From the NCBI GenBank assembly GCA_002408465.1, contig DHSM01000022.1, positions 81,555 through 145,554 of the forward strand: 64,000 bases of DNA, given 5' to 3'. This DNA is from Firmicutes bacterium UBA5286 (GTDB lineage Bacteria > Bacillota > Proteinivoracia > UBA4975). The translations under genes and the position numbers were made by a program. The notes beneath the pieces are model-generated. The model ran no database searches and was not told the origin of the DNA. It saw only the letters and a list, made by a program, of their open reading frames with translations. Numbering within the stretch: the stretch's first letter is position 1; every line of letters starts with the position of its first letter. Below, in pieces: positions 6,232 to 28,945 of the stretch.

Positions 6232-6305
6232 TTTTTACCCTCCTGAGAAAATTAATTTTTGGGAATCTGTTGGTTATACTACATGCTGTTGCTGGACTGT
6301 AGTGG

Positions 6306-7581: not shown

Positions 7582-8475
7582 CTAAATAGCAGTCTCTGTT
7601 TTTGTCCCCCAGACAATTCTGGCCAGTCCTGCCAAATCTTTTTCCACCTGAGGCGCCGCGAATCCACCGGAGCGGAATAATCTTTGCACTTCTTGGGCCT
7701 GGGTGCTGCCAATTTCGACAAAAAGCAATCCTCCCGGCAGCAGATAATCTGCCGCCTGCCGGAGCAAGCGCCGGTAATGGCACAAACCATCGGCCCCGGA
7801 AACTAAAGCCTCTCTGGGCTCATATCCGCTGATTTCCGGCTGTAAATCAGCATATTCCCTGGCAGCGACATAGGGCAGATTGGCAACAATGCAGGCAAAC
7901 TGCCCCCTAAGCTGTTCCAGGGGGGCTAACAAGTCACCGGGCAAAAAGATTGCCCGCTCTACAAGCCCAAATTTTTCGGCGTTTTTTTGGGCCACCTTCA
8001 AAGCCAAAATGGAACAATCAACTGCGTACAACCTGGCTGCAGGCAACAACATCAGCATGCTCAGGCCAATTGCGCCGCTGCCGGCGCCGATGTCGGCCAC
8101 AAGAACTGATTGGCCGGGAAAACCTTTGTTCAATTCTTGGACTGCCAGTTCCACCAGTATTTCCGTTTCCGGCCGGGGAATGAGGACATCTTCATTGACA
8201 CAAAAATCCCAGTGCAAAAAAGGCTTTATCCCCGTAATAAAGGCAAAGGGCTTGCGTTTTCGCCGTTCCTCGACCCCTTGCCGGAACAGCTGGGCCTGCT
8301 GGTCTGAAAGGGCAATTTCATCATGGGTCAGCACTGCGGCCTGATCCTTGCCAAGGACCCAGCCCAAGAGGAGCTGGGCTTCAAACCAGGGCTTATCGAT
8401 TCCTGCCTCTTTCAGTTTTGCCACGGCCTCAAGCATCAATTCCCGGGCTGTCATGAGTTTATCCCATCTGGGCAA
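7582..8475 (-). CDS. prmC: Release factor glutamine N5-methyltransferase PrmC (HemK)
   Basis: 297 aa. SAM-binding [12 protein letters not shown] and catalytic NLPYV (NPPY-type) motifs. Overlaps the prfA stop. Confidence 0.85.
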
Positions 8476-9559
8476 GGCGGGCGAGCTGATCGACGGTAAT
8501 CAGGCTGTCGATAATTTCTTCTAAATCCCCACCTAAGATTTCACTAAGCCGGTGGGTGGTCAAGCCGATTCTATGGTCGGTGACCCGAGTCTGGGGATAG
8601 TTATATGTCCGAATCCGCTCGGAGCGATCTCCCGTTCCCACCTGGCTGCGCCGTTCTGCAGCCAATTCTGCTTGCTGCTCGGATTGAAGTTTTTCAAAAA
8701 TCCGGGAACGGAGAACACGCATCGCCTTATCCCGGTTTTTTAGCTGAGATTTTTCATCCTGACAGGAAACAACAATCCCTGTAGGGATGTGGGTAATTCT
8801 AACTGCCGACTGGGTAGTGTTGACGCTTTGCCCACCGGGACCGGTGGCGCAAAATATATCAACGCGCAGGTCATTTGGATTGATGTCAACTTCAACTTCC
8901 TCAGCTTCCGGGAGCACGGCCACAGTAATTGTGGAGGTATGGATACGGCCGCCGGATTCAGTGGCGGGTATCCGCTGCACTCGATGCACGCCGCTTTCAT
9001 ATTTTAAACGGCTGTATGCCCCCCTGCCCTCAAGGACAAAGACTATTTCTTTGATGCCGCCGATATCAGTGTAGTGAGAGTCGAGAATCTCTGTCTTCCA
9101 TTGTTTTGTTTCAGCATACCTTGAATACATCCTAAAAATCTCCATGGCGAAAAGGGCGGCCTCTTCGCCGCCGGCGCCGCTGCGGATTTCCATAATGACG
9201 TTTTTGTCATCATTGGGGTCTTTGGGAATGAGAAGAAACTTGAGCCTTTCTTCCTGATTGGCCAGTGCGGCTTCCAGTTCTGCAGTTTCTTCCTTGGCCA
9301 GATCTACAAAATCTGGATCAGCATCTTCGGCAACAATTTCTCTGGCCTCGGTCAAAGCTTGTTGGGTTTTTTGATAAAGGCGGTAAGCCTCAACGGTTTC
9401 CGCCAATGATGCATGTTCTTTTGTCAGTTCCAGCCAGAGTTTTTGGTCCTTATTGACTAATTCAGGATCGGATATTTTTTTTTCCAGCTCCAAATATTTC
9501 TGTTCTATAGCCGCTAATTTTTCTAACACTTTATCACACCTTTTAACCTGAGGTTCCAT
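8459..9559 (-). CDS. prfA: Peptide chain release factor 1
   Basis: 366 aa. GGQ motif ([10 protein letters not shown]). An RF1-type tripeptide region. Confidence 0.95.
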
Positions 9560-9573
9560 GCAATATTATAGCC

Positions 9574-10437
9574 TTACTCTTCTCCAGGGTCAATAACGCC
9601 CGCCAGAGCGGCCAAGGCAACCTCTAACTGGCTGGCATCGGGCTCTCGGGTTGTGAGCTTTTGCAAGGCCAGGCCGGGAGCCAACAGTGCCTTGGCAATA
9701 AAGGAAGGGCTCTTTGCCGTCCATTTGATTATTTCATAGGCGATTCCCGCCAGCACTGGCAGCAGTGCCAGCCTCAGCGCCAGCTTCACCCACAGTGTTG
9801 GCGGCGAAAAAAGGGAGAACAAAAGAATGCTGAGGATGACAACCAGCAGGAGAAAGCTGGTTCCACACCGGGGATGGAGACGGGAACAGGCAGCCGCCGC
9901 CTCGGCAGTCAATGGCTTATCCTGCTCCCAGCAGCTTATTACCTTATGCTCTGCACCGTGATATTCAAAAGTTCGCCTGATATCCCTGGACAGCCCCACC
10001 AAAAGCAAATAGCTGATAAAGAGTAAAATTCTCACGATGCTTTCAAGTAGATTGAGAAGCAGACTGGAGCCGCCTAGCCAGCGAGCAAGAGGATTTACCA
10101 GGACCACGGGCAGCAAGAAGAAAAGACCAATGCCCAAGGCCAAAGAAACCACTGCTACAAACGCGAACTGTGCGGGGGAAATCTGTTCCTGGGGATCGGT
10201 CAGGTTGGCGGACATGGCTAAGCTGGAAACAGCTCCGCTCAGGGATTCATAGAGAGCAACCACACCCCGGATAAGGGGAAAACCCAAAACCGGCCATCTC
10301 CTGGCCAGTGGTACCAAAGGACTTGCGTTGGTGACAATTTCTCCATTGGCGGTGCGCACAGCAACTGCCTGACGCTGGGGGCTGCGCAGCATCACCCCTT
10401 CGATTACGGCCTGCCCCCCGATATTGCCCTGTTTCAC
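9574..10437 (-). CDS. DUF1385 family membrane protein
   Basis: 287 aa. The N-terminal [14 protein letters not shown] motif is characteristic of DUF1385. Several TM helices. Lies in the conserved position between tdk and prfA. Confidence 0.65.
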
Positions 10438-11009
10438 CTGGGCACCTCATGGCAGCGCCGGCACCTGGCCTCATAACTTTCTGAGGCTCCCACCATTATA
10501 GTCGGTTCAGTGGCCTTGGCGGGCTGGCCGTTTACCAGGCGCTGGGTGCGGTTGGCGGGATTGCCGCATTTTATGCAGATTGCCTGGAGCTTGTCCACAT
10601 ACTCAGCCATAGCCATCAGGGCAGGGGTTGGTCCAAAAGGCTGGCCGCGAAAGTCCAGATCCAGGCCTGCAACGATGACCCGCTTGCCTTTGTCTGCCAG
10701 GCGGCGGCAGACATCCACCAGACCATTGTCAAAGAATTGGGCTTCATCAATAGCAACTACTTCGGTGTCGTCTTCAACCAGGGAAAAAAGCACACCAGAA
10801 TCGACTACTGCCACGGCGTCCGTCTGGTCGCCATTGTGTGTCACTACATTCACCTTATTGAAACGATCATCTAACCTGGGTTTAAAAACCTGAACTTTGA
10901 GGCGGCCAATTTTTGCCCGCTTAACCCGCCTGATCAGTTCTTCGCTTTTGCCGCTGTACATACTGCCGCAAATTACTTCCAGCCAGCCCATGTCTTTCAT
11001 TAGATGCAT
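10434..11009 (-). CDS. tdk: Thymidine kinase
   Basis: 191 aa. P-loop MYSGKSEEL and the C-terminal zinc-ribbon cysteines (CIKCG...CRRCH). Confidence 0.9.
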
Positions 11010-13194: not shown

Positions 13195-13222
13195 AAAAAG
13201 GCCGGTGAAACCGGCCTTTTTT
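13195..13222 (-). terminator. Rho-independent terminator immediately after the tal stop (aaaaaGGCCGGtgaaaCCGGCCtttttt, bidirectional shape)
   Basis: A perfect 6-bp GC stem and 5-nt loop, flanked by an A tract and a T tract. The tal stop is at 13224-13226. Confidence 0.7.
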
Positions 13223-13223: not shown

Positions 13224-13865
13224 TTATTTTAGCTTTTCCCAGTCTTGCAAGAAGCGCTCTATACCTCGGTCTGTCAAAGGATGGGTTGTGGCAGCCAGCA
13301 AAATTGAGAAGGGGACGGTAGCAAAATGAGCGCCGGCCCTGATGGAATCTGCAATGTGGCTGATGCTGCGAATGCTGGCGGCGATAATTTTGGCATTTAG
13401 ACCAAAGTAGGTAAAAGCGTCGGCAATATCCCGGACCAAATCAATACCGTCGGCATTGACATCATCCAGCCTGCCCACAAAGGGGCTGACATAGGTTGCA
13501 CCCGCCCGGGCTGCCATCATTGCCTGGTTGAGAGAAAAGATCAGGGTGACATTGGTCTTGATCCCCTTGGCAGTCAAAATCTTTGTGGCCTTGAGCCCTT
13601 CAGCGGTCATGGGAATCTTGATGACAATATTCGGAGACAGAGCGGCAAGCTTTTCTGCTTCAGCTACCATGCCCCCGCTTTCCAGGCTGATGACTTCGGC
13701 GCTGATAGGTCCATCCACCACAGTGATAATCTCCTGCAGCAATTCTTGAAAATCCCTGCCTTCTTTTGCTACCAAGGTGGGATTGGTGGTCACGCCTTCG
13801 ATGACGCCCAGAGCCCAGGCCTCCCGGATTTCTTCGATATTGGCAGTATCGATAAAAAATCTCAA
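13224..13865 (-). CDS. tal: Transaldolase / fructose-6-phosphate aldolase (short TalC/Fsa type)
   Basis: 213 aa. [13 protein letters not shown] start and the VTTNPTL motif of the short transaldolase family. Confidence 0.9.
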
Positions 13866-13876
13866 ATTATCACCCC

Positions 13877-14731
13877 TTATGCCTGGCCGGCGCTGCCAAA
13901 CAGCTGAATTTTTTGTTTTGCCACCTGTTTAAGGGCTTCGCGGCCTGGTCCCAAGAGCTTGCGGGGATCAAATTCACCTGGCTTTTCAGCCAGCACCTGT
14001 TTAATGGCGGCGGTAAAGGCCTGGCGCAAGTCGGTATCTATGTTGATTTTGCAGATCCCTATGCTGATTGCCTTTTGAATCGCGTCTTCGGGGACACCGG
14101 AAGCCCCGTGCAGAACCAGGGGCACATCCACCTGGTCGCGAATCTTTTGCAGCCGGGCGAAATCCAGGCGGGGTTCACCTTTATAGGGTCCATGGGCTGT
14201 TCCAATTGCCACTGCCAGAGCATCGATACCTGTGCGCTCAACAAACTCCTGGGCTTCTTCCGGCACCGTCATCATTGCATCTTTGTCGCTGACGCTGACG
14301 TCATCCTCAGTGCCGCCTATTTTGCCCAACTCGGCCTCTACAGATACACCTGCGGGTTTGGCCACCCTTACTACTGCCACGGTATTGGCGATATTATCCT
14401 CAAATGAATGCTTGGAGCCGTCAAACATTACCGCCGAGAATCCCGCCCGGATACATTGCACAGCCTGTTCAAAGCTGGTGCCGTGGTCAAGATGCAGGGC
14501 CACAGGCACTTTAACCTTTTCCGATGCAATCTTTACGATCGCAGCAATATAGTCCAAGCCGGCATACTTAATTGCGCCCTGGCTTGCCTGAAGAATCACC
14601 GGCGAGTCCAGCTCATTTGCAGCCTCAACAATCCCCTGGACAATCTCCAGGTTGTTGGCATTGAAGGCCCCAACAGCATAGCCTCCTTTTTGTGCCTGCT
14701 TCAGCAGAAGGGACATTGGAACTAGTGCCAT
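13877..14731 (-). CDS. fba: Fructose-bisphosphate aldolase class II
   Basis: 284 aa. [15 protein letters not shown] and class II aldolase metal-ligand motifs. Confidence 0.9.
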
Positions 14732-14743
14732 TTTTTACACTCC

Positions 14744-15553
14744 TTAAAGATGTAATATTTTCCTTGCTTCCGCCGGGGTTGCCACTTCCCGGCCCAACTC
14801 TTCAGCTAGGCGGGCAATGCGCTGCACCAGCTGGGCATTGCTTTCCGCCAACTGCCCTCTCTTATAATAAACATTATCTTCAAAGCCTACCCGCACATGG
14901 CCGCCGAGAATTATCGCCATTGCCCCCAGGGGAAGTTCCGTCCTGCCAATGCCCGCAACCGTCCAGGTGCAGCCCGCAGGCAACAAGCTCTTCATGTACA
15001 TTAATGCCTCGGGTGTGCCTGGCATCGCTCCCGGCACTCCCAGGACAAAGTCAAAATGCAGGGGAAGTTCAAGAATGCCTTGTTTCACAAGGGTCAGCGC
15101 ATTCTGCACCATGCCGCTGTCAAAGGCCTCGATTTCCGGCTTGACACCTTTGGAAATCATCGTCTTGGCAAAAGTGCGGATATCATCCATGGTGTTGACG
15201 AAGAGATCATCGCCGAAGTTGACGCTGCCGGTGGACAGAGTCGCCATTTCCGGATTGAGCTGCACCGGCTGCAGACGCTCTTCGGGAGTCATGCCCACGG
15301 CGCCGCCGGTGGACACCTGCACGATGACATCACAGCGTTTGCGGATTCCGGAAATGATTTCGCCAAAGACTTTTGCGTCTTGGGTAGAGTTGCCATCAGG
15401 CTTGCGAGCATGGAGATGGACCATGCTGGCCCCTGCTTGCTGACAGAGGCAGGCTGCCTCGGCAATTTCTTCGGGAGAGATGGGCAAAGCCGGATTAGCT
15501 TCCTTCGTTGTCTCGGCGCCGGTGAGGGCGGCAGTAATAATTAATTTATCCAT
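14744..15553 (-). CDS. kce: 3-keto-5-aminohexanoate cleavage enzyme (Kce, BKACE/DUF849 family)
   Basis: 269 aa. Collinear with characterised Kce (ITAALTGAETT, VHLHARKPDG, QVSTGGAVG, NFGDD, FVLGVPGAMPGTP, IGRTELPL, GHVRVGFEDNVYYKRG, ESNAQLV). Only a 12-bp gap to fba. Confidence 0.85.
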   Translation of the reverse strand: MDKLIITAALTGAETTKEANPALPISPEEIAEAACLCQQAGASMVHLHARKPDGNSTQDAKVFGEIISGIRKRCDVIVQVSTGGAVGMTPEERLQPVQLNPEMATLSTGSVNFGDDLFVNTMDDIRTFAKTMISKGVKPEIEAFDSGMVQNALTLVKQGILELPLHFDFVLGVPGAMPGTPEALMYMKSLLPAGCTWTVAGIGRTELPLGAMAIILGGHVRVGFEDNVYYKRGQLAESNAQLVQRIARLAEELGREVATPAEARKILHL

Positions 15554-15940
15554 TTAAACCACCTTTCTCTGTTTATCTTTCGGAACAACACATACTCCTT
15601 TTGCACTGGCCACCAAAAGGGGCGGATCGAGCTTGTCGGCTGCGGAATCCCCTGCAGCTCCATTGGCGGCAATTATCTTATAGGCTTCAAAGGACATGGT
15701 CCGGGAAGTGTTGCCTATCTTTTCTATCTTGGCGATTACTTCCAAAAAGTCCCCTGCGAAAACCGGAGCTTTGAATAACACATCTTCATAGGCTAAAAAA
15801 AGACCTTCGTCTCCGTCTGAATATACCAACAAAGCGGTGGCAGCATCGCCAAACAATCCCATTATCCTGGCCCCATCCACCAAATTGCCCCCGTAATGAG
15901 CATCGCCGGTGCTCATACGCACACGCAGTACAAATTCCAT
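15554..15940 (-). CDS. kal: Hotdog-fold protein, candidate 3-aminobutyryl-CoA ammonia-lyase (Kal)
   Basis: 128 aa, about Kal size. Sits directly upstream of kce as in lysine-fermentation operons. The assignment rests on size, fold-like composition and context, not on a remembered alignment. Confidence 0.5.
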   Translation of the reverse strand: MEFVLRVRMSTGDAHYGGNLVDGARIMGLFGDAATALLVYSDGDEGLFLAYEDVLFKAPVFAGDFLEVIAKIEKIGNTSRTMSFEAYKIIAANGAAGDSAADKLDPPLLVASAKGVCVVPKDKQRKVV

Positions 15941-15956
15941 TTCTACCTTCTCCTTT

Positions 15957-16316
15957 TTATGTATATTGTTGAATTAAATTGAGCATGAGCTTAATGTCAA
16001 AGGGTTTTTCTAGATATGCAGCAGCCCCCAATTTTTTAACCCGCTTGGCCAAGTCAGGGCTGCCCTGGCCAGTAATCACAATAACAGGTGGATGCGCATA
16101 CAGCTGCATAATTTCGCGCAAGGTCTCAACACCATCCAGTCGGGGCATTCTTACATCAAGAAAAACCAGGTCAACAGTTCTTTCCCGAATCATTTCCATC
16201 GCCTCTTCGCCGCTTGCTGCTTCCAGCAGCGCGTACTCATCACTGTTCAGCACTTCCGACAACAGGCGCCTGATTCCGGGTTGGTCATCGGCAACGACAA
16301 CCGTTTTTTTGGCCAA
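15957..16316 (-). CDS. spo0F: Spo0F-like single-domain response regulator (the track ORF to 16499 is over-extended into pyrG; the likely TTG start is at 16314-16316 with a GGGGG RBS)
   Basis: Receiver domain KKTVVVADDQPGIRRLLSEVL...LDVRMP...EKPFDIK, close to B. subtilis Spo0F (DDQYGIRILLNEV...AKPFDID). Conserved position between pyrG and fba. Confidence 0.7.
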   Translation of the reverse strand: MAKKTVVVADDQPGIRRLLSEVLNSDEYALLEAASGEEAMEMIRERTVDLVFLDVRMPRLDGVETLREIMQLYAHPPVIVITGQGSPDLAKRVKKLGAAAYLEKPFDIKLMLNLIQQYT

Positions 16317-16401
16317 TGAAATACCCCCTCGTAAAAGAGATCTGGCATGAAAGGTTCCCTTTTGGGGATATATTCTCCCTATTGTCTCTATATCCTTCCT
16401 G

Positions 16402-18072
<1,671 letters not shown>

Positions 18073-18822
18073 TTAAAGGCTGCCTAATTTGCGGGCGACC
18101 ATTTCCCTGGAAATATAGCTGGCAACCTGGCGAGGGGTGGTGCCGGCGCCAAAACCGGCGTCATAACCCAGTTCCAACGCCAGTTGATGGCTGATGCGAG
18201 GGCCCCCTGCCACCAGCACCACTGAATTCCGGATGCCTTCAGCCTCCAAAAGCTCAACCAGGCGAGTGAGATTAGGTATATGCACATCCCGCTGGGTCAC
18301 CACTTGGGAAACCAGGATGGCATCTGCCTGCAGCCTGCGGGCCTCGGCTACCAAAAACGTATTGTCCACTTGGCTGCCTAGGTTGTAGGCATTGATCCAG
18401 GGATAGCGCTCCAGGCCATATTCGCCGTTATATCCCTTCATATTCATTATGGCGTCGATGCCCACTGTGTGAGCGTCGGTGCCGGTGCAGGCCGCCACCA
18501 CGTTGAGCTTGCGGCCGACATTATCCCGGATGTAGTCGTTGATTTCATAAAAGTCCATCTCTTCTAACTCGAGTTCCGTAACTTGCAGGGTGCTCAGGTC
18601 TACCTGGTGATGACAGTGACCGTAGACAACAAAAAAGCTAAAGCCCGCGCCCTGACTGGCCATATGCACTACTTCCGCCTGGTCCAGGCCCATGGACTCG
18701 GCCAGGCTTGCGGCAGCAGCTTTTGCCTGGGGGCCGGCAGCCAGAGGCAGGGTAAAGGATACCTGCACTGCTCCATCATCCAAAGCGTCGCCGTAGGCTT
18801 TTATTATTTTCCCTTCAGTCAT
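18073..18822 (-). CDS. kamE: Lysine 5,6-aminomutase beta subunit (B12-binding, KamE)
   Basis: 249 aa. B12-binding DxHxxG-type motif (ACTGTDAHTVGID) and a Rossmann-like C-terminal half. Overlaps kamD. Confidence 0.8.
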   Translation of the reverse strand: MTEGKIIKAYGDALDDGAVQVSFTLPLAAGPQAKAAAASLAESMGLDQAEVVHMASQGAGFSFFVVYGHCHHQVDLSTLQVTELELEEMDFYEINDYIRDNVGRKLNVVAACTGTDAHTVGIDAIMNMKGYNGEYGLERYPWINAYNLGSQVDNTFLVAEARRLQADAILVSQVVTQRDVHIPNLTRLVELLEAEGIRNSVVLVAGGPRISHQLALELGYDAGFGAGTTPRQVASYISREMVARKLGSL

Positions 18823-20380
18823 TTTCCATCCCCCTGTCCAGCTTTGCTTTCATATTGTCCAGGAACGGATTATAGTATTCTGCAGCTTGCATAAACACTC
18901 CCAGCAGACCTTTGCCGCCCTCCCTGGATCTCTTGACATCGGCAAACATTCCCCTTTCCAAAGCGGTGAAGAGGCCAATTCCCGCCACCTGGCTTAAGAG
19001 ATCCGCTGCTTTTGCCAGCACTTCGGAAGCCCGTTTTTGCATCCGGCCATCCGGCACGATTTCCAGTTCCTCCCTGAGATGCCGGGCGTTATTCATGATA
19101 TAGCGGGCGTTTTCTATTGCTAAATAGCGGTCCTGAATAAAGGGAGTGTGAATGGCTTCAGTGAGCATTCCCAGCAAATGGATTCCTTGCCCTGTGAGCA
19201 CAGAGGTGAGATTAAAGAGGCTGTTGTGCAGGTAACCTTTAAAGATGTCGCCGGTCATGTGCTTGGTAGGGGGCATATATTTCAGGGGAGCATCAGGGAA
19301 AAGCTGCCTGGCCATCTGAGCCTGGGCTATTTCCAGCAGCAGCCCGTCTTCCATATCCGGATTGATTTCAAAGGCGTGTCCCAATCCCATTTGCCAGGGA
19401 CTTAGACCTGCTGCCAGGGCCAGTTGTTCGTTGATAAACTGTGAAGCCGTTACTGTATGCGCTTCAGCAACTGCATCGGCAGTGGTCAGGTAATTGTCTT
19501 CTCCAGAATTGATGATGATGCCGGCAAAGGCATTGATTACCCTAGAAAAGTTCTGATCAATCAAGGTCCGCTGCATGTTGATATCCCTGAAGAGTATGCC
19601 GTACAGGGCATCATTGAGCATCATGTCCAAGCGTTCCAAGGCGCCTAAGGCAGCTATTTCCGGCATGCACAGGCCGGAACAGTAGTTGACCAGCATGATA
19701 TACCGGCCTAATTTTTCACCGGTCTCGTCCAGGGCCTTGCGCATAATGCGGAAGTTCTCCTGAGTGGCGTAAGTGCCGCCAAACCCTTCTCGAGTGGCGC
19801 CATGGGGCACATAGTCCAGCAGACTCTGGCCGGTGGTCCGGATAACGGCGATGATATCTGCTCCTTGTTCAGCGGCTGCCTGTGCCTGAGGCACATCCTG
19901 CATGATGTCGCCGGTAGCGACGATGACATAGAGCAGGGGAGAAGGCCCCATCTTTAATTTTAGTTGCAAGCGCTGGCGCTGACGCCGATTGTCGGCAATC
20001 CGCTGCAGGCCAGGCTGAGCAAGTTCCTGGAGGAAGGGGCGCAAACCCGCTGGCTCTATTCGGGGCAGGGCCAGCAAATCCAACTCGCCAGCAGCCACTT
20101 TCGCGGCCGCCATTTGGGGGGAAAGGTTTAACTGCTTGCAGGCATTGCCCAGCCAATAGGCGGCTCCCAGGCCAAGTTCGCCGCGGGCAGCCAGGCTGTC
20201 CACTATAATATTGGCCATGGGCACGTCATCCAAGGCATCGTTGACCCCCAGCAAGCGCAACACTGTTCGTTCAACAGACTCGGTAGACCGGGACCCGATA
20301 AACACCTGCACTTCATCAGCAATTTGACGGGCAGCGTCCCGGCATTCCTTGACCAAGACTGCATCCAACTGCAATTTCAT
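18815..20380 (-). CDS. kamD: Lysine 5,6-aminomutase alpha subunit (KamD, PLP-binding TIM barrel)
   Basis: 521 aa, about KamD size. Adjacent and overlapping to kamE. Family recalled from overall sequence character and context. Confidence 0.75.
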   Translation of the reverse strand: MKLQLDAVLVKECRDAARQIADEVQVFIGSRSTESVERTVLRLLGVNDALDDVPMANIIVDSLAARGELGLGAAYWLGNACKQLNLSPQMAAAKVAAGELDLLALPRIEPAGLRPFLQELAQPGLQRIADNRRQRQRLQLKLKMGPSPLLYVIVATGDIMQDVPQAQAAAEQGADIIAVIRTTGQSLLDYVPHGATREGFGGTYATQENFRIMRKALDETGEKLGRYIMLVNYCSGLCMPEIAALGALERLDMMLNDALYGILFRDINMQRTLIDQNFSRVINAFAGIIINSGEDNYLTTADAVAEAHTVTASQFINEQLALAAGLSPWQMGLGHAFEINPDMEDGLLLEIAQAQMARQLFPDAPLKYMPPTKHMTGDIFKGYLHNSLFNLTSVLTGQGIHLLGMLTEAIHTPFIQDRYLAIENARYIMNNARHLREELEIVPDGRMQKRASEVLAKAADLLSQVAGIGLFTALERGMFADVKRSREGGKGLLGVFMQAAEYYNPFLDNMKAKLDRGMEND

Positions 20381-21993
20381 TGATCCAACACCTCCTGGGG
20401 AGCAATCCCCAACTCTTGCGAAGCATGCGCGATAATTTCTGGAGCCAGACCCAGAAAAGCTGCGACCCTAAGGGCATCGCGGGGTATTTCTCCTTTTCCC
20501 GGCACCAGGGAATAGTCCATTAATTTTTGCAGTGATTTCAGGTCCTGAGTCTGCAGCTCGGCGTCTCTGCGGGAGAGACCCGCCAGTCCCGCTACCTGCA
20601 AATGTGTAACTCCCTCCATATCTGAAAGGCCGGGGAAATGAGTTGCCACTAAGGTGATGCTGTTGCCTTCATCCAGCCAAGCCACTAATGCCTTGACCAG
20701 CGCGGCACCCTCCCAGGGATTTGTCCCTCGGGCAGGCTCATCCAGCAAAAACAACCCTCTTTGCCCCCGCAGAGGAAGGACCCCTGCCAGTCCATGAATC
20801 TCCGTGCCAAAGGTGCTCAATCCCTGACTGGGGTTCTCTTCTTGCTGAGAATAATAGATAAATTCCCGCAGGGAAAACTTGCATGCCCGGGCAGGCACCA
20901 GCAGCCCCATTTGCGCCATGGCTATTGCCAGTCCGGCAGAGCGCAGGGCAATGGACTTGCCTCCCATGTTGGCGCCGGTAATTACTGTCACTGGCGTGCC
21001 GAGACACAAGGAGACAGGCTGAAAAATCATGCCCTCTTTTGCCAGATAGCTGCTGACCACAGGATTGATGAATTCAGCCAGCACCAACTGGGACTCGTTG
21101 ACAAGCTCGGGAACACACCAGCCAGTTTGCCTGGCCAGGCGCCCTTTGGCCAGCAGCAGATCAATTCTGCCTATGCGCCGGCATGCCGCCAGCAAAAGGC
21201 GGCGATTTTTTGCCGCCTCTCTGCTTAAATCCCGGCGGACGCTGTATTCTATTTCTTGGATTTTCTCCTCCAGGCTGCTGATTGCCGATCCCAACGCCAG
21301 CATCTGCTCATCGTCGCGAATTGTATATTCTAATTCAGCATATCCCTCTGCCGCCGCGATTATATCTTTGCGGATTTCCAGCTCTTTGCACGCGGGATCC
21401 AGCTTATGAATGCGCAGGCGGCCAAGGGGATTAAAGGTTTGGCCGGTTTCCTGTGAAACTTTCGCCTGCAGTTCTCTGCGCCGGCGACTAAGTTCTGCTT
21501 TTTTCTCCCTTTGCTCTTGTCTGAGCGCGGCCAGGGCAGGGGTAAAGCTGTCTGCCAGATAAAACCCTTCCCCTCCCCCGCCTGGAGCAAGTACTGCCAG
21601 CAGATCCACGGCCACAGGGATTGTCAGCCGGGAAGGCAGGAACTTAAATTGTTGCAGCTTTTCCCCCAGCTGCCGAGATAAATCCAAAAAACGTTTGAGT
21701 TCAAAAAAATCCATATCTTCGAGGACATATCCCTGACAGGCTCTTTTGACCGCCCCTCTGATTTCCCTGAAAGAACCCAGGCGCAGTTCGATTTCCCCGA
21801 GCAAATCCGGTTGCCACTCAGCCAGCAATCCCGCAACCAGGTCCCATTCATTAGTCAGCCAGCTTTCACAGCCAGGGCCGGCAGCCTTCATTCTGGTTTT
21901 AAGCAGTTTCCCATAGGGGCTTATGGGGCAAAGTTGCCGCAGCACCCAATTCAGGCCGATTCTCTCTGCAGTAGGTTGTTCAACAAGGGCCAT
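20377..21993 (-). CDS. MutS domain-V-like ABC ATPase lacking the mismatch-binding domain; conserved accessory gene of lysine aminomutase clusters (candidate reactivating factor)
   Basis: 538 aa. Walker A VITGANMGGKSIALRS and Walker B/D-loop FLLDEPARGTNP, typical of MutS domain V. No N-terminal mismatch domain. Lies between kamA and kamD. Confidence 0.7.
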   Translation of the reverse strand: MALVEQPTAERIGLNWVLRQLCPISPYGKLLKTRMKAAGPGCESWLTNEWDLVAGLLAEWQPDLLGEIELRLGSFREIRGAVKRACQGYVLEDMDFFELKRFLDLSRQLGEKLQQFKFLPSRLTIPVAVDLLAVLAPGGGGEGFYLADSFTPALAALRQEQREKKAELSRRRRELQAKVSQETGQTFNPLGRLRIHKLDPACKELEIRKDIIAAAEGYAELEYTIRDDEQMLALGSAISSLEEKIQEIEYSVRRDLSREAAKNRRLLLAACRRIGRIDLLLAKGRLARQTGWCVPELVNESQLVLAEFINPVVSSYLAKEGMIFQPVSLCLGTPVTVITGANMGGKSIALRSAGLAIAMAQMGLLVPARACKFSLREFIYYSQQEENPSQGLSTFGTEIHGLAGVLPLRGQRGLFLLDEPARGTNPWEGAALVKALVAWLDEGNSITLVATHFPGLSDMEGVTHLQVAGLAGLSRRDAELQTQDLKSLQKLMDYSLVPGKGEIPRDALRVAAFLGLAPEIIAHASQELGIAPQEVLDQ

Positions 21994-21998
21994 AATTA

Positions 21999-23021
21999 TT
22001 AGCCTCCCTCTGCCATAGGATCGACAACCAGCAACTCCGGCATCAATTCCCTTAAGCCCCCTACCAGCTGTCTGCCTGGCAGCCGCCGCCCCCGGGGGTC
22101 CACAGGGTTGACAGTGATGGCGATTAGGTTGATGGGCCGGATAACATTTACAGCCACCCGCCGCAACAAGCGCTGCCAGCGGCCGGGCTCGACAAAAATC
22201 CTTGTCCCGTCTTGGACAATAGCCTTAAGCCCTGGAACTTTCCAGCTTGCCTGCAAAAGCAGTTCTGCCAGGGGATCGCTTAACGCGCCCCCTACCAGCA
22301 GGCAGTTGTAATCAGGGCTAAGATAATCGGAAATTTCCGGCGGTGCATCTATGGCAGTAGTAAGGGGTATTGGCTTGACCTGGCCGTGCTGATTTTGCAC
22401 GCCGATTTTTCCCTGCTCCAGCAGCGCCAATCCCTGTTCGCCAAGGTTAGAAACGGCTGGAGTCATCAATACCCGAGCGGCGTTGACAGTGAGGCCCACT
22501 ACCTTTTGCACGTCCCTGCCAATTACCGCACCTGTGGCCAGAATCGCTGCATCGGTAACCGATGGGGCAGAAGCGGCAATTCTGTCGATAGCCCCGTCAG
22601 CAATGACCAGTTGGGCATAATCCTGCAACCTTGCAATTACTGCCCGAAGATCCCCGGTGCGTTCAGGACCGCTGACTTCAACGCTACCAGCTTCCCGCAC
22701 CCGGGCGATGACGATTTCCCCCAGGGCATTGTATATGCCGGTGGTGTCCAAAATTTCCAGGCGGGCAGTGCCTCTGCCCAAACTGGCAGTGGAGGTAGCC
22801 AGCACCGCCTTCTCTGGCAGGTAAATTGCCGGCTTGGGAAGAGCGCTGACAATGTCGGTGCTTTCACCATCCCGGCCGGTGGAAGTTAGACCAAGGGCAA
22901 TGCCGGCTTGAACCGCTCCTGCAACCAGGCAGTTTACCGTCACCGTCTTGCCTGTGTTTTTGCCCATTCCCACTACAGCAATTGACTGATGCCGGAGTGC
23001 CAGGGCAGTGAGATCATTCAC
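21999..23021 (-). CDS. P-loop NTPase of unknown function; second accessory gene between kamA and kamD
   Basis: 340 aa. N-terminal P-loop AVVGMGKNTGKT. Translationally coupled to kamA and the MutS-like gene (4-bp overlaps). No confident family. Confidence 0.45.
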   Translation of the reverse strand: MNDLTALALRHQSIAVVGMGKNTGKTVTVNCLVAGAVQAGIALGLTSTGRDGESTDIVSALPKPAIYLPEKAVLATSTASLGRGTARLEILDTTGIYNALGEIVIARVREAGSVEVSGPERTGDLRAVIARLQDYAQLVIADGAIDRIAASAPSVTDAAILATGAVIGRDVQKVVGLTVNAARVLMTPAVSNLGEQGLALLEQGKIGVQNQHGQVKPIPLTTAIDAPPEISDYLSPDYNCLLVGGALSDPLAELLLQASWKVPGLKAIVQDGTRIFVEPGRWQRLLRRVAVNVIRPINLIAITVNPVDPRGRRLPGRQLVGGLRELMPELLVVDPMAEGG

Positions 23022-24256
23022 TTGCGTCGCTTTCCCCGTTGCAAATTGTTGGGCTCCATGCTTATGCCCTGACCCTTAAGCAGTCCATGAACTCCCAGAG
23101 ACTCCTGGCAGTAAGCGCAATCGCTGCAGTCTGGAGATTGATAGTCTGCCGGCTGGGCATACGTAGCGATTACTCCTTCATAGTTGCGGAGCACCACCCG
23201 GTCGGGAGACTGGGAGATGAGATACTGAGGCATGACAGGAATTTTGCCGCCGCCGCCGGGGGCATCTACGACAAAAGTGGGAACAGCAAAGCCGGAGGTG
23301 TGGCCGCGCAGTCCTTCAATAATCTCTATGCCCTTGGACACGCTGGTGCGGAAGTGTTCAATTCCCTGTGACAAATCGCATTGGTAGATATAGTAAGGAC
23401 GGACTCGGTTTTTGACTAACGCGTGCACCAGGGCTTTCATGACCCCCAGGCAATCATTGACTCCCCGCAACAGAACTGACTGATTTCCAAGGGGGATTCC
23501 TGCATCAGCAAGCCTGGCCAAAGCCGCGGCTGCTTCTTCAGTCATCTCCCGGGGATGATTAAAGTGGGTATTTATCCAAATGGGATGATACTTTTTGAGC
23601 ATGTCAACCAGAGCGGGGGTAATACGCTGGGGCATAACCACCGGCGTTCTGGTGCCGATGCGAACAATTTCAACATGTTCGATTTTCCGCAAGCTTTTTA
23701 TGATCTCTTCCAGCTGGCTGTCGGAAATAAGCAGGCCGTCGCCGCCAGAAATCAGCACATCCCTGATCTGAGGAGTCTTGCGGATATAATCCAGGGCCTT
23801 TTCTATTTGCTCCCGGGGCAGCGCCCGGTCGTTTGTCCCTGCCATTCGGCGGCGGGTACAGTGCCGGCAGTACATCGAACACTGGTCAGTCACCAAAAAC
23901 AGGACCCTATCAGGATAGCGATGGGTAATCCCCGGGGCAGGAGAATCCAAATCTTCTGCCAGGGGATCCAACATATCCGAAGCCGACCGGATTAATTCCC
24001 GGCTGGTGGGAACAGCCTGACGGCGAATGGGACAAGCAGAGTCCTCAGGATCCATGAGGGAAGCGTAATAAGGAGTAATAGCCATGCGCAAACTACCCAA
24101 GCAACGGCGGATTCCTTCCTCTTCCTCAGGCGTCAGGTTGATGACTTGCTTTAGGGTTTCTACATCTGTAATCCGATTTTTTAGTTGCCAGTGCCAGTCA
24201 TTCCACTCCTCCGGCGTAACATTTTTAAATATGTCAATCCGTTTGTATGTGGACAA
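23018..24256 (-). CDS. kamA: Lysine 2,3-aminomutase (radical SAM)
   Basis: 412 aa. CSMYCRHCTRRR radical-SAM cluster motif. KamA-typical length and C-terminal Zn-cysteine region (CSDCAYC). Confidence 0.9.
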   Translation of the reverse strand: MSTYKRIDIFKNVTPEEWNDWHWQLKNRITDVETLKQVINLTPEEEEGIRRCLGSLRMAITPYYASLMDPEDSACPIRRQAVPTSRELIRSASDMLDPLAEDLDSPAPGITHRYPDRVLFLVTDQCSMYCRHCTRRRMAGTNDRALPREQIEKALDYIRKTPQIRDVLISGGDGLLISDSQLEEIIKSLRKIEHVEIVRIGTRTPVVMPQRITPALVDMLKKYHPIWINTHFNHPREMTEEAAAALARLADAGIPLGNQSVLLRGVNDCLGVMKALVHALVKNRVRPYYIYQCDLSQGIEHFRTSVSKGIEIIEGLRGHTSGFAVPTFVVDAPGGGGKIPVMPQYLISQSPDRVVLRNYEGVIATYAQPADYQSPDCSDCAYCQESLGVHGLLKGQGISMEPNNLQRGKRRK

Positions 24257-24270
24257 AATCTAGCCCCCCT

Positions 24271-25314
24271 TTATGCGTACAGCTTGCTGAACATCTCCCG
24301 CAGAACGCTGTTTTCCCGCAGTGTATTAATAGCAATCTCAGAATGGTCCTTGGTGTAACCGTTGCCGATGAGCATAGTCACGTCTTTGCCGATGCCCTCT
24401 GCGCCAAGAGCTGCGGCGGTAAAACTGGTGGCCATGCTGAAGAAATAGACCATGCCGCCGTCCTTGGTGGCCAAAATTGATGTCATTTCGGTGGCAGGAA
24501 TGTCAACACAGTTAATGGTCACGTCTGCCAAGGCGCCGTCAGTTGCCTCTTCAACCAATTTGAGAACAGCTACTGAATCCTTTGCATCACCGCGCAGGAT
24601 AACATCGGCCAGCCCGCTCTGCCGGACCCGCTCTGCCGCTCGATCCGAACGGCACAGGGCCATGACTTTGCCAGTGATGCCTGCCCGTTTCTTAGCCTCA
24701 TGGAGACAGAGGAGCCCGGATTTGCCGCCGCCGCCGATGATCAGCACTGTTTGGCCGGGGCCCACGATTTTGGCGGTTTGAGCAGGGGCGCCTGCTACGT
24801 CCAGCACTGCCAGGGCCAGCTTATCCGGCATGTCCTTAGGCAATTTCGCGTAGATGCCGCTTTCAAAGAGCACCGCTTTGGCCCGCACATCCACCTGGCA
24901 GGTAGCCGGATGCACTGCAAGAATTTCCTGGATGTTTAAGGGAGTCAGGGACAAAGAGACCATGCTGGCGACGCGGTCGCCCACTGCTAAATCTCGCTTG
25001 CCCTGCAAGGACTTACCGATTTCAGCCACCGACCCGATTAACATGCCGCCGGAACCGGTGACAGGATTATGCTGCTTCCCCCGCTTGGCAACAGTTTCCA
25101 AGATAATTTCGCCGATTTTCTCCGGGTCGCCTTTTGCCTGTTCCGAAATCTGCCTGAAGCTGGCTGCATCCACATTCAAAGTTTCAACATCGATGAGGAG
25201 TTCGTTGTCCCAAATCTCCATAGAGTTATCCAACTTCCATGCAGGTTGGGGCAAAGATCCCATTGGTTCAATAGTTCTGTGCGTTCCGTAACGATTTCCA
25301 CCTGTTTTTGTCAT
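24271..25314 (-). CDS. kdd: L-erythro-3,5-diaminohexanoate dehydrogenase (Kdd)
   Basis: 347 aa. Rossmann GGGGKSG motif, about Kdd size. First gene after the sigma-54 promoter in the lysine cluster. Assignment is by context plus family-like sequence. Confidence 0.7.
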   Translation of the reverse strand: MTKTGGNRYGTHRTIEPMGSLPQPAWKLDNSMEIWDNELLIDVETLNVDAASFRQISEQAKGDPEKIGEIILETVAKRGKQHNPVTGSGGMLIGSVAEIGKSLQGKRDLAVGDRVASMVSLSLTPLNIQEILAVHPATCQVDVRAKAVLFESGIYAKLPKDMPDKLALAVLDVAGAPAQTAKIVGPGQTVLIIGGGGKSGLLCLHEAKKRAGITGKVMALCRSDRAAERVRQSGLADVILRGDAKDSVAVLKLVEEATDGALADVTINCVDIPATEMTSILATKDGGMVYFFSMATSFTAAALGAEGIGKDVTMLIGNGYTKDHSEIAINTLRENSVLREMFSKLYA

Positions 25315-25325: not shown

Positions 25326-26711
25326 CTATTTCTTTACTTGCTCTATACTAATGCAAATTTCATGCCACTTGTGCTTTCGCAGCTTCCGCTGCAGAGTTTG
25401 TCTGGGGATGCCTAGTAAACTTGCGGCTTTGCTGATGTTATTTTCAGTAGTTTTCATTGTCCGGAAAATCATGTCCCTTTCCAGCCTATCCAGTTCCGGG
25501 CGCAATTTTTGTAAACCCCTAGGTTGGTGAAGATGCTCTGGCAAGTCTACAGTCTCAATCAGGCCCTCACTGCGGAAATTTAAGCAACTTTCAATGCAGT
25601 TGGACAGTTCCCGGATATTCCCTGGCCAGTGCCAGGCAGCAAGCATTCTTGCCGCCTCTGGAGCCACCCCCTCAACCCTGGTAGCGAGACTGGCGTTAAA
25701 CCGAGAAAGAAAATGTCTGCACAAAATGGGGATATCGATCTTTCGCTCCCGCAGAGGAGGCAACACCAAGACAACTACATTAAGCCGGTAATACAAATCC
25801 GGGCGCAGAGCCTCTTTGGGATTGGCAGCCATGGCGGCAATAATCCTGACATCCACTTTTCGTGTTCTGACATCCCCGAGCCGGCGCAACTCACCTGTCT
25901 CCAGCACCCGCAGCAGCTTGGCCTGGAGCTGATGGGGCATGGCATTGAGTTCGTCAAGAAACAAGGTTCCGCCGTTAGCCAGTTCAAACAGACCAGGCCT
26001 GTCCTGGGCGCCGGTAAAACTTCCCTTGACGCTGCCAAACAAAATGGCATCCAACAAGCCTTCCGGCAGAGCTGCACAGTTCTGGGCAATAAAAGGCCGG
26101 GCCCGGCGCAAACTTTCATTATGAATAGACTGAACCAGCAATTCTTTGCCTGTCCCAGTTTCTCCTACTACCATCACCGGCGAATCATTATGGGCGGCCA
26201 AGGCTCCCCGGGCCAGCACCTCCCGCAAAGCAGAGCTCTCGCCAATAATGTCGCTGAAGTGGTAAATTGCGCCTTGTTCCGCCCTGGCAGCAGGATCTTC
26301 GCTGTGCAGCCTACGGCGCAAGTCAATGACTTGTTCCGCCAGCTTCCGAATCCCTGATATATCCCGGGCCACCTCTACCGCCCCCAAGAGATTGCCCTCC
26401 TGCCCAAAAATGGGCAATGTGGTGTTGACAGTAGAAATTTCCACACCCTTGACATTGGTATAGACCTGTTGCTGATCGACAATGGGCTTGCCGGTGCGGG
26501 CCACCTTGAGCAAGGTGCTGGTTCCCCTGTCCAGGGAAGGGAAAATTTCCAGGACATGTTTGCCCAGCACCTCAGAGGGCTCCAATCCATCCATGATTGC
26601 CGCTGCAGCGTTATAGTATTTAGTTATACCGTTGGTGTCTACCATGTGTATGCCTTCGTTGCTGTGGCTAAGCACCACCTCAAGCAATGCATGTTCCAGT
26701 TGCATATTCAC
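25326..26711 (-). CDS. Sigma-54-dependent transcriptional activator (PAS sensor, AAA+ sigma-54 interaction domain, Fis-type HTH)
   Basis: 461 aa. N-terminal PAS. GETGTGKELLVQSIH Walker A, GAFTGA-like loop (GSFTGA), ELANGGTLFLDE, and a C-terminal HTH (AASLLGIPRQTLQRKL). Confidence 0.9.
   Translation of the reverse strand: MNMQLEHALLEVVLSHSNEGIHMVDTNGITKYYNAAAAIMDGLEPSEVLGKHVLEIFPSLDRGTSTLLKVARTGKPIVDQQQVYTNVKGVEISTVNTTLPIFGQEGNLLGAVEVARDISGIRKLAEQVIDLRRRLHSEDPAARAEQGAIYHFSDIIGESSALREVLARGALAAHNDSPVMVVGETGTGKELLVQSIHNESLRRARPFIAQNCAALPEGLLDAILFGSVKGSFTGAQDRPGLFELANGGTLFLDELNAMPHQLQAKLLRVLETGELRRLGDVRTRKVDVRIIAAMAANPKEALRPDLYYRLNVVVLVLPPLRERKIDIPILCRHFLSRFNASLATRVEGVAPEAARMLAAWHWPGNIRELSNCIESCLNFRSEGLIETVDLPEHLHQPRGLQKLRPELDRLERDMIFRTMKTTENNISKAASLLGIPRQTLQRKLRKHKWHEICISIEQVKK
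25352..25367 (-). promoter_or_regulatory. Sigma-54 (-24/-12) promoter TGGCATgaaatTTGCA driving kdd-kamA-...-kamE, embedded in the last codons of the activator gene
   Basis: The minus-strand sequence TGGCATGAAATTTGCA matches the consensus TGGCAC-N5-TTGCW with exact GG/GC spacing. It lies about 38-53 bp upstream of the kdd ATG (RBS AGGAGGG) and overlaps the 3' end of the EBP gene. Confidence 0.6.
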
Positions 26712-26761: not shown

Positions 26762-26787
26762 CGGAAGAAAAGCAACCTTATGGTTGC
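26762..26787 (-). terminator. Intrinsic terminator of the pdaD-speE-speB operon (GCAACCauaaGGUUGC plus U-rich tail), overlapping the speB stop codon
   Basis: Perfect 6-bp palindrome gcaacc/ggttgc centred on the speB stop, followed on the minus strand by uuuucuucc. Confidence 0.45.
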
Positions 26788-27641
26788 CTGCCAAAGAGCA
26801 ATAGAGCCTCCCGCATAATCTTGGCCCCCAGGGCAGCGGAAATGTCAGTATGATCATGGGGGGCTAATTCCACCAAATCAAAGCCAACAACATTGCACTG
26901 CCCCAACAGCTGGAGGCCGGCCAGCAGCTCCCGGGGGCTGATGCCGCCGGCCTCGGGAGTGCCGGTTCCGGGAGCATAGGCTGGGTCCAGAGCATCCAGA
27001 TCCAGGGTGATATAGATCGGCCCAGTCAGCTCGTGGATTACCTGGGAGAGGGGCTGTAGAAATCTAAAAGGAAAAAGGCGTGTCCGCTGGCGGGAAAACT
27101 GGTGCTCTTCCCTGGTGGCAGAACGAATGGCAAACTGCCATATTTCCCCCAGGGGCAGCGTCCTAGCGGCAGCGCCAACCACCGTGGCATGGGAAAGGGT
27201 TTCTCCCAGCCACTCCTCCCGCAAATCAGCATGGGCGTCAATATGTACTAGAGTGAGCCCGGGAAAATACCGGGAAAAGACACGCAGGCAGGGGAGGGTA
27301 ACAAGATGATCCCCGCCCATGACAAAGGGGCGCTGTCCAGCCGCCAGCAGCTGACCCACCGCCTCTTGGATTATGTCCAGAGAGCGGGGAACATTGCCAA
27401 TAGGCAACAACAAGTCGCCAGCATCATAAAAGTCTAAGTCCTCAAGACTTTTTTCCAGCTGCAGGCTATAATCCTCCAGATTGTATGACATTCGCCGCAC
27501 AGCTTCCGGCCCGAATCTTGACCCAGGCCGAAAACTGGCGGTAAAATCCATGGGAGCGCCTAAGATTACATTTGCTGCCTGGGGACTGTCGCCGGCGCAG
27601 AAAAATTTCTGTCCTCTAAAACTGTCTTTGCCCCATTCCAT
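26778..27641 (-). CDS. speB: Agmatinase (arginase family)
   Basis: 287 aa. Arginase-family Mn ligands (GGDHLVT, DAHADL, DLDALDP). Confidence 0.85.
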   Translation of the reverse strand: MEWGKDSFRGQKFFCAGDSPQAANVILGAPMDFTASFRPGSRFGPEAVRRMSYNLEDYSLQLEKSLEDLDFYDAGDLLLPIGNVPRSLDIIQEAVGQLLAAGQRPFVMGGDHLVTLPCLRVFSRYFPGLTLVHIDAHADLREEWLGETLSHATVVGAAARTLPLGEIWQFAIRSATREEHQFSRQRTRLFPFRFLQPLSQVIHELTGPIYITLDLDALDPAYAPGTGTPEAGGISPRELLAGLQLLGQCNVVGFDLVELAPHDHTDISAALGAKIMREALLLFGRQP

Positions 27642-28474
27642 TATGGTCTGCTCAAAAGCTCTCGGACAAACTGGGGCAAGACAAAACAGCTGCGGTGCAG
27701 TTCAGGGGTGTAGTACTTACTGATAAAACCCGGATGCGGCTGGCGCTGATTGGTCAAGGGGTCATATTGTTTGGAGGCCAGGGTAAAGCTCCACAAACCG
27801 CTGGGATAAGTGGGAATACTGGCCAAATAGGTGTGAACCTTGGGGAATACTGCCTGCATGCCCTTATAGGCCCCCGCCAGAATCTCCTGATTGTAAAAAG
27901 GAGATTCAGTCTGAGCAACCATTATGCCGTCCGGTCTCAAAGCGGCGTATACAGCAGCGTAAAAATCTCTGGAGAAGAGGGCAACGGCAGGTCCCACCGG
28001 TTCGGTAGAATCCACTAGCACTATGTCAAATTCCCCTTTATGTTCCCTGAGATAAGCAAAGCCGTCTCCGATGTGGATTTCGACTTTGGGGTTTCCCAGG
28101 GCGCCGGCGATTTCCGGCAAAAATTTCCGGGATTGGGCGATTACTTCGCCGTCAATCTCGGCAAGAATTGCTTTTTCCACCTGGGGATGTTGCAACACTT
28201 CCCGAATGGCTCCGCCATCGCCGCCGCCAATTACAGCAACTTTCCTGGGACAAGGATGGGTGAAAAGGGCCGGGTGGCTAATCATTTCATGATAAACAAA
28301 CTCATCGGCAATGGTGGTCATAACCATGCCGTCCAGGACCAGCATTGGGCCAAAGGCTTCGGTGTCGATGATGGCCAAGTGCTGATAGGGGGTCTGGGCC
28401 GTTGTCAGAGTTTCTCTGACTTTACAGGATAGTCTGAGACTGGGAGTCTGTTCTTCGGTATACCAAAGTTCCAT
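27641..28474 (-). CDS. speE: Spermidine synthase
   Basis: 277 aa. LWYTE start, VLDG, IGGGDGG and DSTEP motifs of SpeE. Confidence 0.9.
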   Translation of the reverse strand: MELWYTEEQTPSLRLSCKVRETLTTAQTPYQHLAIIDTEAFGPMLVLDGMVMTTIADEFVYHEMISHPALFTHPCPRKVAVIGGGDGGAIREVLQHPQVEKAILAEIDGEVIAQSRKFLPEIAGALGNPKVEIHIGDGFAYLREHKGEFDIVLVDSTEPVGPAVALFSRDFYAAVYAALRPDGIMVAQTESPFYNQEILAGAYKGMQAVFPKVHTYLASIPTYPSGLWSFTLASKQYDPLTNQRQPHPGFISKYYTPELHRSCFVLPQFVRELLSRP

Positions 28475-28486
28475 TCTTGAGTCCTC

Positions 28487-28945
28487 CTAGTACCACAGGG
28501 CTACAGCGGCAAAGGCGCAGCCTATTCTTTCCACCACATGTTCGGTGGAAGCCAGTTTAACGTCCTTGAGGGCAAGGTCTCTGACGGCAAAAGCATTTTT
28601 CAGCATCTGGCGAATTTTCTCTTCCGCCTCTTCCCTGGTCCCCTTGGCGGCATATTCCATAATCACGCCAAAAGAATTTTCGCTAAAGCCAATGCCGACA
28701 CAGGCGGCGATTTTTTCCCCTTTTTTCTCGCTGATTACATACCCATAAGCAGTGGGCACAAGGGATCCCGGGGGAAGGACCAAATCCGGAACATAAATCG
28801 ATTCTGGGGGCAAAATGCTGCTGATTCTCAGCAAATTGACATTGCCTATTCCTGACGCCAAAAGAGCGTTGTCAAAGGAGTTCAGCAGAGTCTCGCCTTC
28901 GGCGCTGCCGGCAACTATCTTAAACTTTTTCGGTGTTGGTAGCAT
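28487..28945 (-). CDS. pdaD: Pyruvoyl-dependent arginine decarboxylase (PdaD)
   Basis: 152 aa. The conserved self-cleavage Ser-Ser site sits in LLRISSILPP. Upstream of speE-speB (arginine to agmatine to putrescine to spermidine). Confidence 0.7.
   Translation of the reverse strand: MLPTPKKFKIVAGSAEGETLLNSFDNALLASGIGNVNLLRISSILPPESIYVPDLVLPPGSLVPTAYGYVISEKKGEKIAACVGIGFSENSFGVIMEYAAKGTREEAEEKIRQMLKNAFAVRDLALKDVKLASTEHVVERIGCAFAAVALWY

Follow-up and report, generated by a model that had tools for sequence, protein, structure and literature searches.

The stretch of DNA analysed here, 64,000 nucleotides of contig DHSM01000022.1 of Firmicutes bacterium UBA5286 (referred to at its full length as the window), carries on its minus strand a locus in which genes for the fermentation of lysine to crotonyl-CoA are interleaved with housekeeping genes. 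In transcription order, the locus comprises a gene for a sigma-54 activator, kdd, kamA, kamB, kamC, kamD, kamE, pyrG, a spo0F-like gene, kal, kce, fba and tal (Table 1), and downstream of tal follow glpX, an M23 peptidase gene, tdk, a DUF1385 gene, prfA and prmC. The lysine core genes do not form one contiguous operon, as pyrG and spo0F part kamE from kal. For comparison we used nine distinct loci of relatives (L087–L094 and L096) reached via the protein index, and the order activator-kdd-kamABCDE-pyrG-(spo0F)-kal-kce-fba-tal-glpX was found in all nine.

Genes of the locus and their spacing

Identities were established by scoring the open reading frames (ORFs) of the window against NCBIfam profiles with their curated cut-offs; all gene calls of the locus lay above the cut-off, kal passing narrowly. 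These scores confirm the minus-strand gene order and identities given by an earlier sequence-only reading of the stretch; two names are replaced, its "P-loop protein" being KamB and its "MutS-like ATPase" KamC, with positions unchanged. KamA, KamD/KamE (beta-lysine 5,6-aminomutase) with their reactivase KamB/KamC, and Kdd, Kce and Kal, which carry the lysine route on from 3,5-diaminohexanoate to crotonyl-CoA, are all present and profile-confirmed. Neither domains of butyryl-CoA:acetoacetate CoA-transferase (AtoAD) nor thiolase domains, which the full pathway also requires, were found among the window ORFs scanned, as the same reading had reported.

Table 1. Features of the locus in transcription order, with profile scores against cut-offs where given
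Feature	Position	Strand	Details
Sigma-54 activator gene	25326–26711	minus	PAS, AAA+ (Sigma54_activat) and HTH_8 domains (Pfam on identical product)
Predicted sigma-54 −24/−12 promoter	25352–25367	minus	TGGCATGAAATTTGCA; in 3' end of activator gene, ~38 nt upstream of kdd ATG
Operon kdd-kamA-kamB-kamC-kamD-kamE	18073–25314	minus	tightly packed; gaps up to 14 bp, overlaps up to 8 bp
kdd (3,5-diaminohexanoate dehydrogenase)	24271–25314	minus	NF052381, 265 bits vs 200
kamA (lysine 2,3-aminomutase)	23018–24256	minus	TIGR03820, 638 bits vs 525
kamB (reactivase subunit)	21999–23021	minus	NF052386, 312 bits vs 210
kamC (reactivase subunit)	20377–21993	minus	NF052383, 430 bits vs 300
kamD (lysine 5,6-aminomutase alpha)	18815–20380	minus	NF052384, 841 bits vs 600
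kamE (lysine 5,6-aminomutase beta)	18073–18822	minus	NF052385, 378 bits vs 280
Predicted hairpin over kamE stop codon, then UUUUU	18058–18092	minus	−12.4 kcal/mol, z = −2.4
Predicted sigma-A promoter of pyrG	18028–18056	minus	TTGCCT-17-TACAAT; hexamer match
pyrG (CTP synthase)	16402–17994	minus	875 bits; TTG start, GGAGG before start
Spo0F-like single-domain response regulator gene	15957–16316	minus	119 aa; TTG start at 16316
kal	15554–15940	minus	NF052388, 169 bits vs 160
kce	14744–15553	minus	NF052387, 440 bits vs 382
fba (class II fructose-bisphosphate aldolase)	13877–14731	minus	
tal (Tal/FSA family)	13224–13865	minus	
Predicted strong intrinsic terminator after tal, before glpX	13195–13221	minus	−18.3 kcal/mol, z = −4.9

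The eight best PDB matches of the 119-aa regulator are all Spo0F (E ~1e-22; next family 7e-18), and its position in the block also fits. The top match of the activator is the PrdR model; at 335 bits, far under the cut-off of 795, identification as PrdR was rejected, and many other sigma-54 activator families were matched as well. The protein is a generic enhancer-binding protein, distinct from PrdR. Directly upstream of its gene lies a polyamine operon (pyruvoyl-dependent arginine decarboxylase, speE, speB; 26778–28945).

The genes of the kam operon are tightly spaced: kdd begins 11 bp after the activator gene and is separated from kamA by 14 bp, kamA and kamB overlap by 4 bp, kamB and kamC are 5 bp apart, and kamC/kamD and kamD/kamE overlap by 4 and 8 bp. 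The gap between kamE and pyrG is 78 bp with the TTG start at 17994, which was chosen by profile alignment, the long ORF matching the pyrG profile from residue 24 onward, and by the ribosome-binding site. One metagenome gene call would shorten it to 60 bp, and only the longest possible ORF to 12 bp; the earlier figure of under 60 bp does not hold at the best-supported start.

Farther downstream, gaps of 85 bp (pyrG/spo0F) and 16 bp (spo0F/kal) are followed by kal and kce with a gap of 0 bp, stop and start adjoining (TAAATG). The gaps of 12 bp between kce and fba and of 11 bp between fba and tal, noted earlier, are read directly from the sequence. In all relatives, the spacing at these two junctions ranges from a 7-bp overlap to a 16-bp gap; the kce/fba gap is at most 13 bp in all compared loci, and in three of them, L091, L093 and L094, the kce stop and the fba start overlap.

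It should be noted that 50 indexed blocks of the assembly collection contain a KCE protein identical to that of the window, and that the layout is the same in six of the six places shown, which come from JGI and ENA assemblies. Since the identical KCE has the same context in all six, the gene layout is not an assembly artefact.

Two predicted transcription units

The features expected of a sigma-54 operon, a promoter match with GG at −24 and GC at −12 and an adjoining gene for an AAA+ activator, are found at the head of the kam genes. The window element, TGGCAT-N5-TTGCA, is one of only three one-mismatch sigma-54 matches in the 64 kb, and an element occurs at the same place in nine of nine loci, as TGGCAY-N5-TTGCA in eight and as TGGTAC-N5-TTGCT in L094, with flanks that vary. 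A second sigma-54 match (26683–26698), within the first codons of the activator gene, was treated as chance. At the other end of the operon, the hairpin at the kamE stop codon recurs in relatives and is stronger, with U-runs, in L090 and L094. Hairpin and U-run together are likely a moderate intrinsic terminator of the sigma-54 unit, as predicted by folding.

Directly after this structure, the predicted sigma-A promoter of pyrG, TTGCCT-17-TAnAAT with its exact 17-nt spacing, is kept in ten of ten loci compared. From spo0F to tal, hexamer scan and folding revealed neither a terminator-like structure nor a good promoter match, and the pyrG-spo0F spacer showed no more structure than shuffled sequence does. 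One promoter match within spo0F (TTGACC-16-AAGAAT, 16174–16147) was discounted, as it overlaps the conserved receiver motif DLVFLD. A hairpin with a T-run follows tal in eight of ten loci. Rfam over the window gave five tRNAs only, with no riboswitch, leader or rRNA, and no pyrG attenuator of the B. subtilis type.

Co-transcription of fba and tal with kal-kce, proposed by the sequence-only reading, is well supported as a prediction, because the genes are 0–16 bp apart, kce and fba overlap in some relatives and neither terminator nor promoter was seen between spo0F and tal; the conserved terminator after tal agrees with it. We infer two transcription units, a sigma-54 unit kdd-kamABCDE and a sigma-A unit pyrG-(spo0F)-kal-kce-fba-tal. 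Given the conserved promoters and terminators of both, kal-kce alone would be truly fused into the housekeeping operon, while the aminomutase operon would merely abut pyrG. The earlier proposal that the aminomutase operon, too, is fused to the pyrG block is not upheld, in view of its own conserved sigma-54 promoter and end hairpin and of the separate pyrG promoter in all ten loci.

Several points weigh against this division. The promoters and terminators are all predicted, from consensus matches or from folding; a sigma-H-like motif (AGGA, with GAAT 21–22 nt on) lies upstream of spo0F in four of the seven loci that carry this gene, a tentative observation; the hexamer scan could miss an fba promoter within the kce coding sequence; and the kamE hairpin is only moderate in the window, so that transcription from the sigma-54 promoter could run on into pyrG-tal. 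With this read-through and the lack of a clear U-run after kamE in L088 and L096, the twelve co-directional genes, nowhere more than 85 bp apart, could be viewed as one 13-kb sigma-54 super-operon from kdd to tal, in which lysine would also control CTP synthase, Spo0F, aldolase and transaldolase. We regard such an operon as unlikely: the sigma-A promoter with exact spacing stands directly before pyrG in every locus compared, the kamE hairpin recurs and forms a strong terminator in L090 and L094, and the essential genes pyrG and fba would hardly rely on an inducible promoter. Similarly improbable is a promoter of fba-tal within kce, which would make the fusion purely physical and leave fba-tal expression independent of kal-kce. 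B. subtilis has a promoter for fbaA-ywjH downstream of spo0F (bioRxiv 10.1101/2023.12.01.569620), yet the hexamer scan found no minus-strand sigma-A match within 14731–15940, and the kce-fba overlap in three relatives together with the short gaps in all is typical of translational coupling.

Age and history of the arrangement

The relatives span a considerable divergence. Their identity to the window is 66–91% for KCE, 75–87% for PyrG and 69–84% for PrfA, and in the most distant, L092, it is 79% for kamA, 73% for kamD, 66% for kce, 75% for pyrG, 76% for fba and 74% for prfA; lysine-pathway and housekeeping proteins thus diverge in parallel. KCE homologues grade from 94% to 66% identity. In a scan of genome contigs with KCE, none of the matches listed came from the window's own clade, the best being 66% identical. 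For 11 further pairs of KCE and PyrG clusters, the longest contig was identical in size, one of only 5.9 kb. The identity of PyrG to that of cultured Clostridia levels off at 68–71% across many Clostridia orders, indicating that the clade is deep; there was no cultured member of the clade among the PyrG matches. The genes speE-speB upstream of the activator gene are also present in L096, the sole relative locus that extends that far upstream.

As the nine relatives keep the same interleaving, the layout is old and stably inherited and is not a recent insertion, which the sequence-only reading had implied. The lysine genes are newcomers in the housekeeping backbone, because the latter is colinear with that of B. 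subtilis.

The spo0F-like gene is the variable element of the block. It is cleanly absent from L087, L088 and L093, where pyrG lies 27–50 bp from kal. In a KCE tree (neighbour-joining, Kimura distances, 200 bootstraps), L087 and L088 are closest to the window, whose spo0F-like gene remains, and the gene was therefore probably lost more than once. L091 contains an extra ORF of 453 aa without a Pfam match between pyrG and spo0F (7829–9190).

Outside the clade, kal-kce occurs in a related context in a second lineage of Anaeromicrobium-like Clostridia, the KCE of which is 63–67% identical to that of the window. In L003 and nine metagenome loci (L100, L104, L110, L112, L114, L115, L118, L119 and L127), the pair kal-kce immediately precedes tal-glpX(-rho-tdk-prfA), and no kam genes are close by. 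The kce/tal gap is 175–600 bp in most of these loci; gaps of 4–11 bp were found in L104 and L102, and in L104 the tight kal-kce-tal trio stands apart from glpX. In L105 and L120, pyrG lies 1.4–2.3 kb upstream and is itself preceded by a gene for an SLH protein rather than by a kam gene. The kce/tal junction is therefore not confined to the clade, whereas a kamE/pyrG junction was found in clade members only. Elsewhere, the kam and kal-kce modules are joined in different orders in different lineages: L095, on a contig of Gram-negative type, has contiguous kamA-kdd-kamB-kamD-kamE-kal-kce, L121 has contiguous kal-kce-kdd-kdd-kamA-B-C-D, and in L001 kdd-kal-kce are contiguous.

Some further loci show other neighbours of KCE-family genes. 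In L002, from a Syntrophomonadaceae metagenome-assembled genome (MAG), a class-III aminotransferase gene (37–1098) stands directly upstream of kal-kce and may encode a Kat-type 3-aminobutyryl-CoA transaminase of the variant lysine pathway (PMC3149608). In L004 (Tissierellia MAG, 8750–10813), a KCE-family gene without kal adjoins glpX in divergent orientation; in L078 (Pseudomonadota MAG, 4997–6837), one of 43% identity, probably with a different BKACE function, also adjoins glpX.

Two separate placements of kam and kal-kce are somewhat favoured over the fission of one cluster, because the kce/tal junction is also found outside the clade, and kam upstream of pyrG only inside it. The KCE tree complicates this preference. 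It recovers the clade as monophyletic (172/200) and the second lineage as a group of its own (198/200), but the second lineage does not branch as sister to the clade; that place is taken by L095 with its contiguous kamD-kamE-kal-kce (194/200), which suits fission equally. Fission would start from an ancestral activator-kdd-kamABCDE-kal-kce cluster beside pyrG-spo0F, with a local block swap that put pyrG-spo0F between kamE and kal. In its favour, kamD-kamE and then kal-kce lie on one strand, colinear with the L095 cluster, and L001 has kal-kce directly after kdd. The same colinearity could equally have arisen if L095 acquired a clade-like segment and then lost the redundant pyrG-spo0F; a second deep lineage has kal-kce upstream of tal-glpX with no kam nearby; in L121 the modules are joined the other way round (kal-kce-kdd-kam), indicating that they move independently; and KamA and KamD of L121 are nearer to those of the window than are those of L095, so the gene histories conflict. 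On balance we consider fission the less likely of the two, though still viable. The outgroup L097, picked by PyrG, has pyrG-spoIIR without the spo0F-fba block and is uninformative on the ancestral state. Recent horizontal insertion of the lysine genes into the housekeeping operon, in one event or two, is extremely improbable. The break in a backbone colinear with B. subtilis and a slightly higher GC content over 18–24 kb would fit it, but the layout is shared down to 66% KCE and 75% PyrG identity, lysine and housekeeping genes have diverged in concert, neither block has mobile-element genes at its flanks, and GC, GC3 and codon usage, taken gene by gene, put the lysine genes within the range of the genes around them. 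A single mobile segment that spread recently is excluded by the protein divergence of 25–34%.

Taken together, these data make it fairly probable that the gene order of the locus is old and has been inherited vertically in an uncultured Bacillota clade, frequent in anaerobic digesters, which carries the lysine-to-crotonyl-CoA pathway as two modules in two transcription units. Under this model, the PAS-domain sigma-54 activator would switch on the −24/−12 promoter at the end of its own gene, which would drive kdd-kamA-kamB-kamC-kamD-kamE up to the hairpin and U-run at the kamE stop. The sigma-A promoter immediately downstream would drive pyrG-(spo0F)-kal-kce-fba-tal, the strong terminator before glpX closing the unit. 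Production of KAL and KCE would then accompany that of CTP synthase, aldolase and transaldolase and would probably be constitutive, and sigma-54 control acting on the committed upper steps would gate the flux through the pathway. Promoter and terminator activity, and with it the regulatory logic of both units, are read here from sequence.

It appears doubtful to us that selection, rather than history alone, keeps kal-kce linked to tal, fba and glpX; the idea is suggested by two deep Clostridia lineages in which kal-kce stays directly upstream of tal, with gaps sometimes of 4–12 bp, and by the tight kal-kce-tal trio of L104. If it were true, asaccharolytic lysine specialists would co-express the lower pathway as housekeeping energy metabolism with gluconeogenic and pentose-forming enzymes; in a more radical version, the Tal/FSA-type aldolase might act directly in the lysine pathway.

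The locus reveals no new chemistry and is a modest genomic curiosity. It offers a natural example of catabolic genes that have settled permanently in a core housekeeping operon, apparently with translational coupling, and have stayed there across divergence at the family level or deeper. The predicted control in this abundant uncultured digester clade is split, the upper lysine pathway being sigma-54-inducible and the lower constitutive. Synteny-based screens for butyrate or lysine pathways would score such organisms as incomplete if they require one contiguous cluster.

As regards the rest of the window, mnmE-mnmG-rsmG-noc-parA-parB occupy 57280–63763 on the minus strand, and GC skew is negative throughout; the window is therefore origin-proximal, and the lysine/pyrG block is on the leading strand, ~40–50 kb away from oriC. 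The minus strand also carries a cluster of five tRNA genes (Lys, Glu, Asp, Phe, Thr) at 45626–46036. Between 46000 and 52150, ORFs are short or without a Pfam match, with an ORF-poor gap at ~47.9–48.75 kb; at 48–50 kb, GC falls to 0.42 and AT skew swings sharply, and neither tandem repeats nor Rfam matches were found in 46000–52150. Just downstream of prmC, L081, L082, L085 and L086 carry a DDE transposase gene (500–534 aa, ~18170–19780) that is absent from the window (~7490–7580), L083 and L084, indicating a strain-level insertion polymorphism within the same species.

Comparison with known systems

The sequence-only reading had assigned the genes from pyrG to prmC to an ancient Firmicutes block. 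In B. subtilis, pyrG lies upstream of the spo0F-fba-tal block and tdk, prfA and prmC lie downstream of it; the flanking pbp and speE-speB also match the window. The core of the block is borne out by the B. subtilis locus spo0F-fbaA-ywjH(tal)-murAB-glpX-rho with a terminator after ywjH (bioRxiv 10.1101/2023.12.01.569620). The window shares with it spo0F, fba, tal and glpX in matching order and orientation, the predicted intrinsic terminator after tal and the Spo0F-like regulator. It differs in that kal-kce replaces the promoter region between spo0F and fbaA, that murAB and rho-rpmE are missing from the block, and that spo0F is dispensable in the clade, being lost in three relatives. The murAB place between tal and glpX is empty, and a murA-family gene (37987–39240) lies between yycI and walJ in the walR-walK-yycH-yycI-walJ-htrA operon of the window (35950–43955), another gene embedded in a conserved operon.

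The Anaeromicrobium-like loci resemble the window in having kal-kce directly upstream of tal-glpX within the tdk-prfA block, and differ in lacking fba between kce and tal and a kam operon nearby. Amino-acid fermentation operons of Clostridia are known to be under sigma-54 control, an example being proline reductase with its activator PrdR. As in that system, a gene for a PAS/AAA+/HTH_8 activator lies directly upstream of a −24/−12 promoter of an amino-acid catabolic operon; unlike it, the activator scores well below the PrdR cut-off, and the predicted promoter is situated within the 3' end of the activator gene.

Described lysine clusters, those of Fusobacterium nucleatum (PMC3149608) and the 'lysine utilization operon' of Intestinimonas AF211 (PMC4697335), are contiguous. 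The enzymes KamA, KamDE, Kdd, Kce and Kal are the same as in the window, and in Intestinimonas, too, acetoacetate CoA-transferase (atoDA) and thiolase genes are not beside the core genes (PMC4697335). In contrast to these clusters, the set in the window is split by pyrG-spo0F, and kal-kce is apparently fused to fba-tal; no description of such a split, embedded arrangement of lysine genes was found in the literature searched. The enzymes are orthologous to those of the described pathway, and the locus organises a known gene set in a new way rather than being a new type of system.

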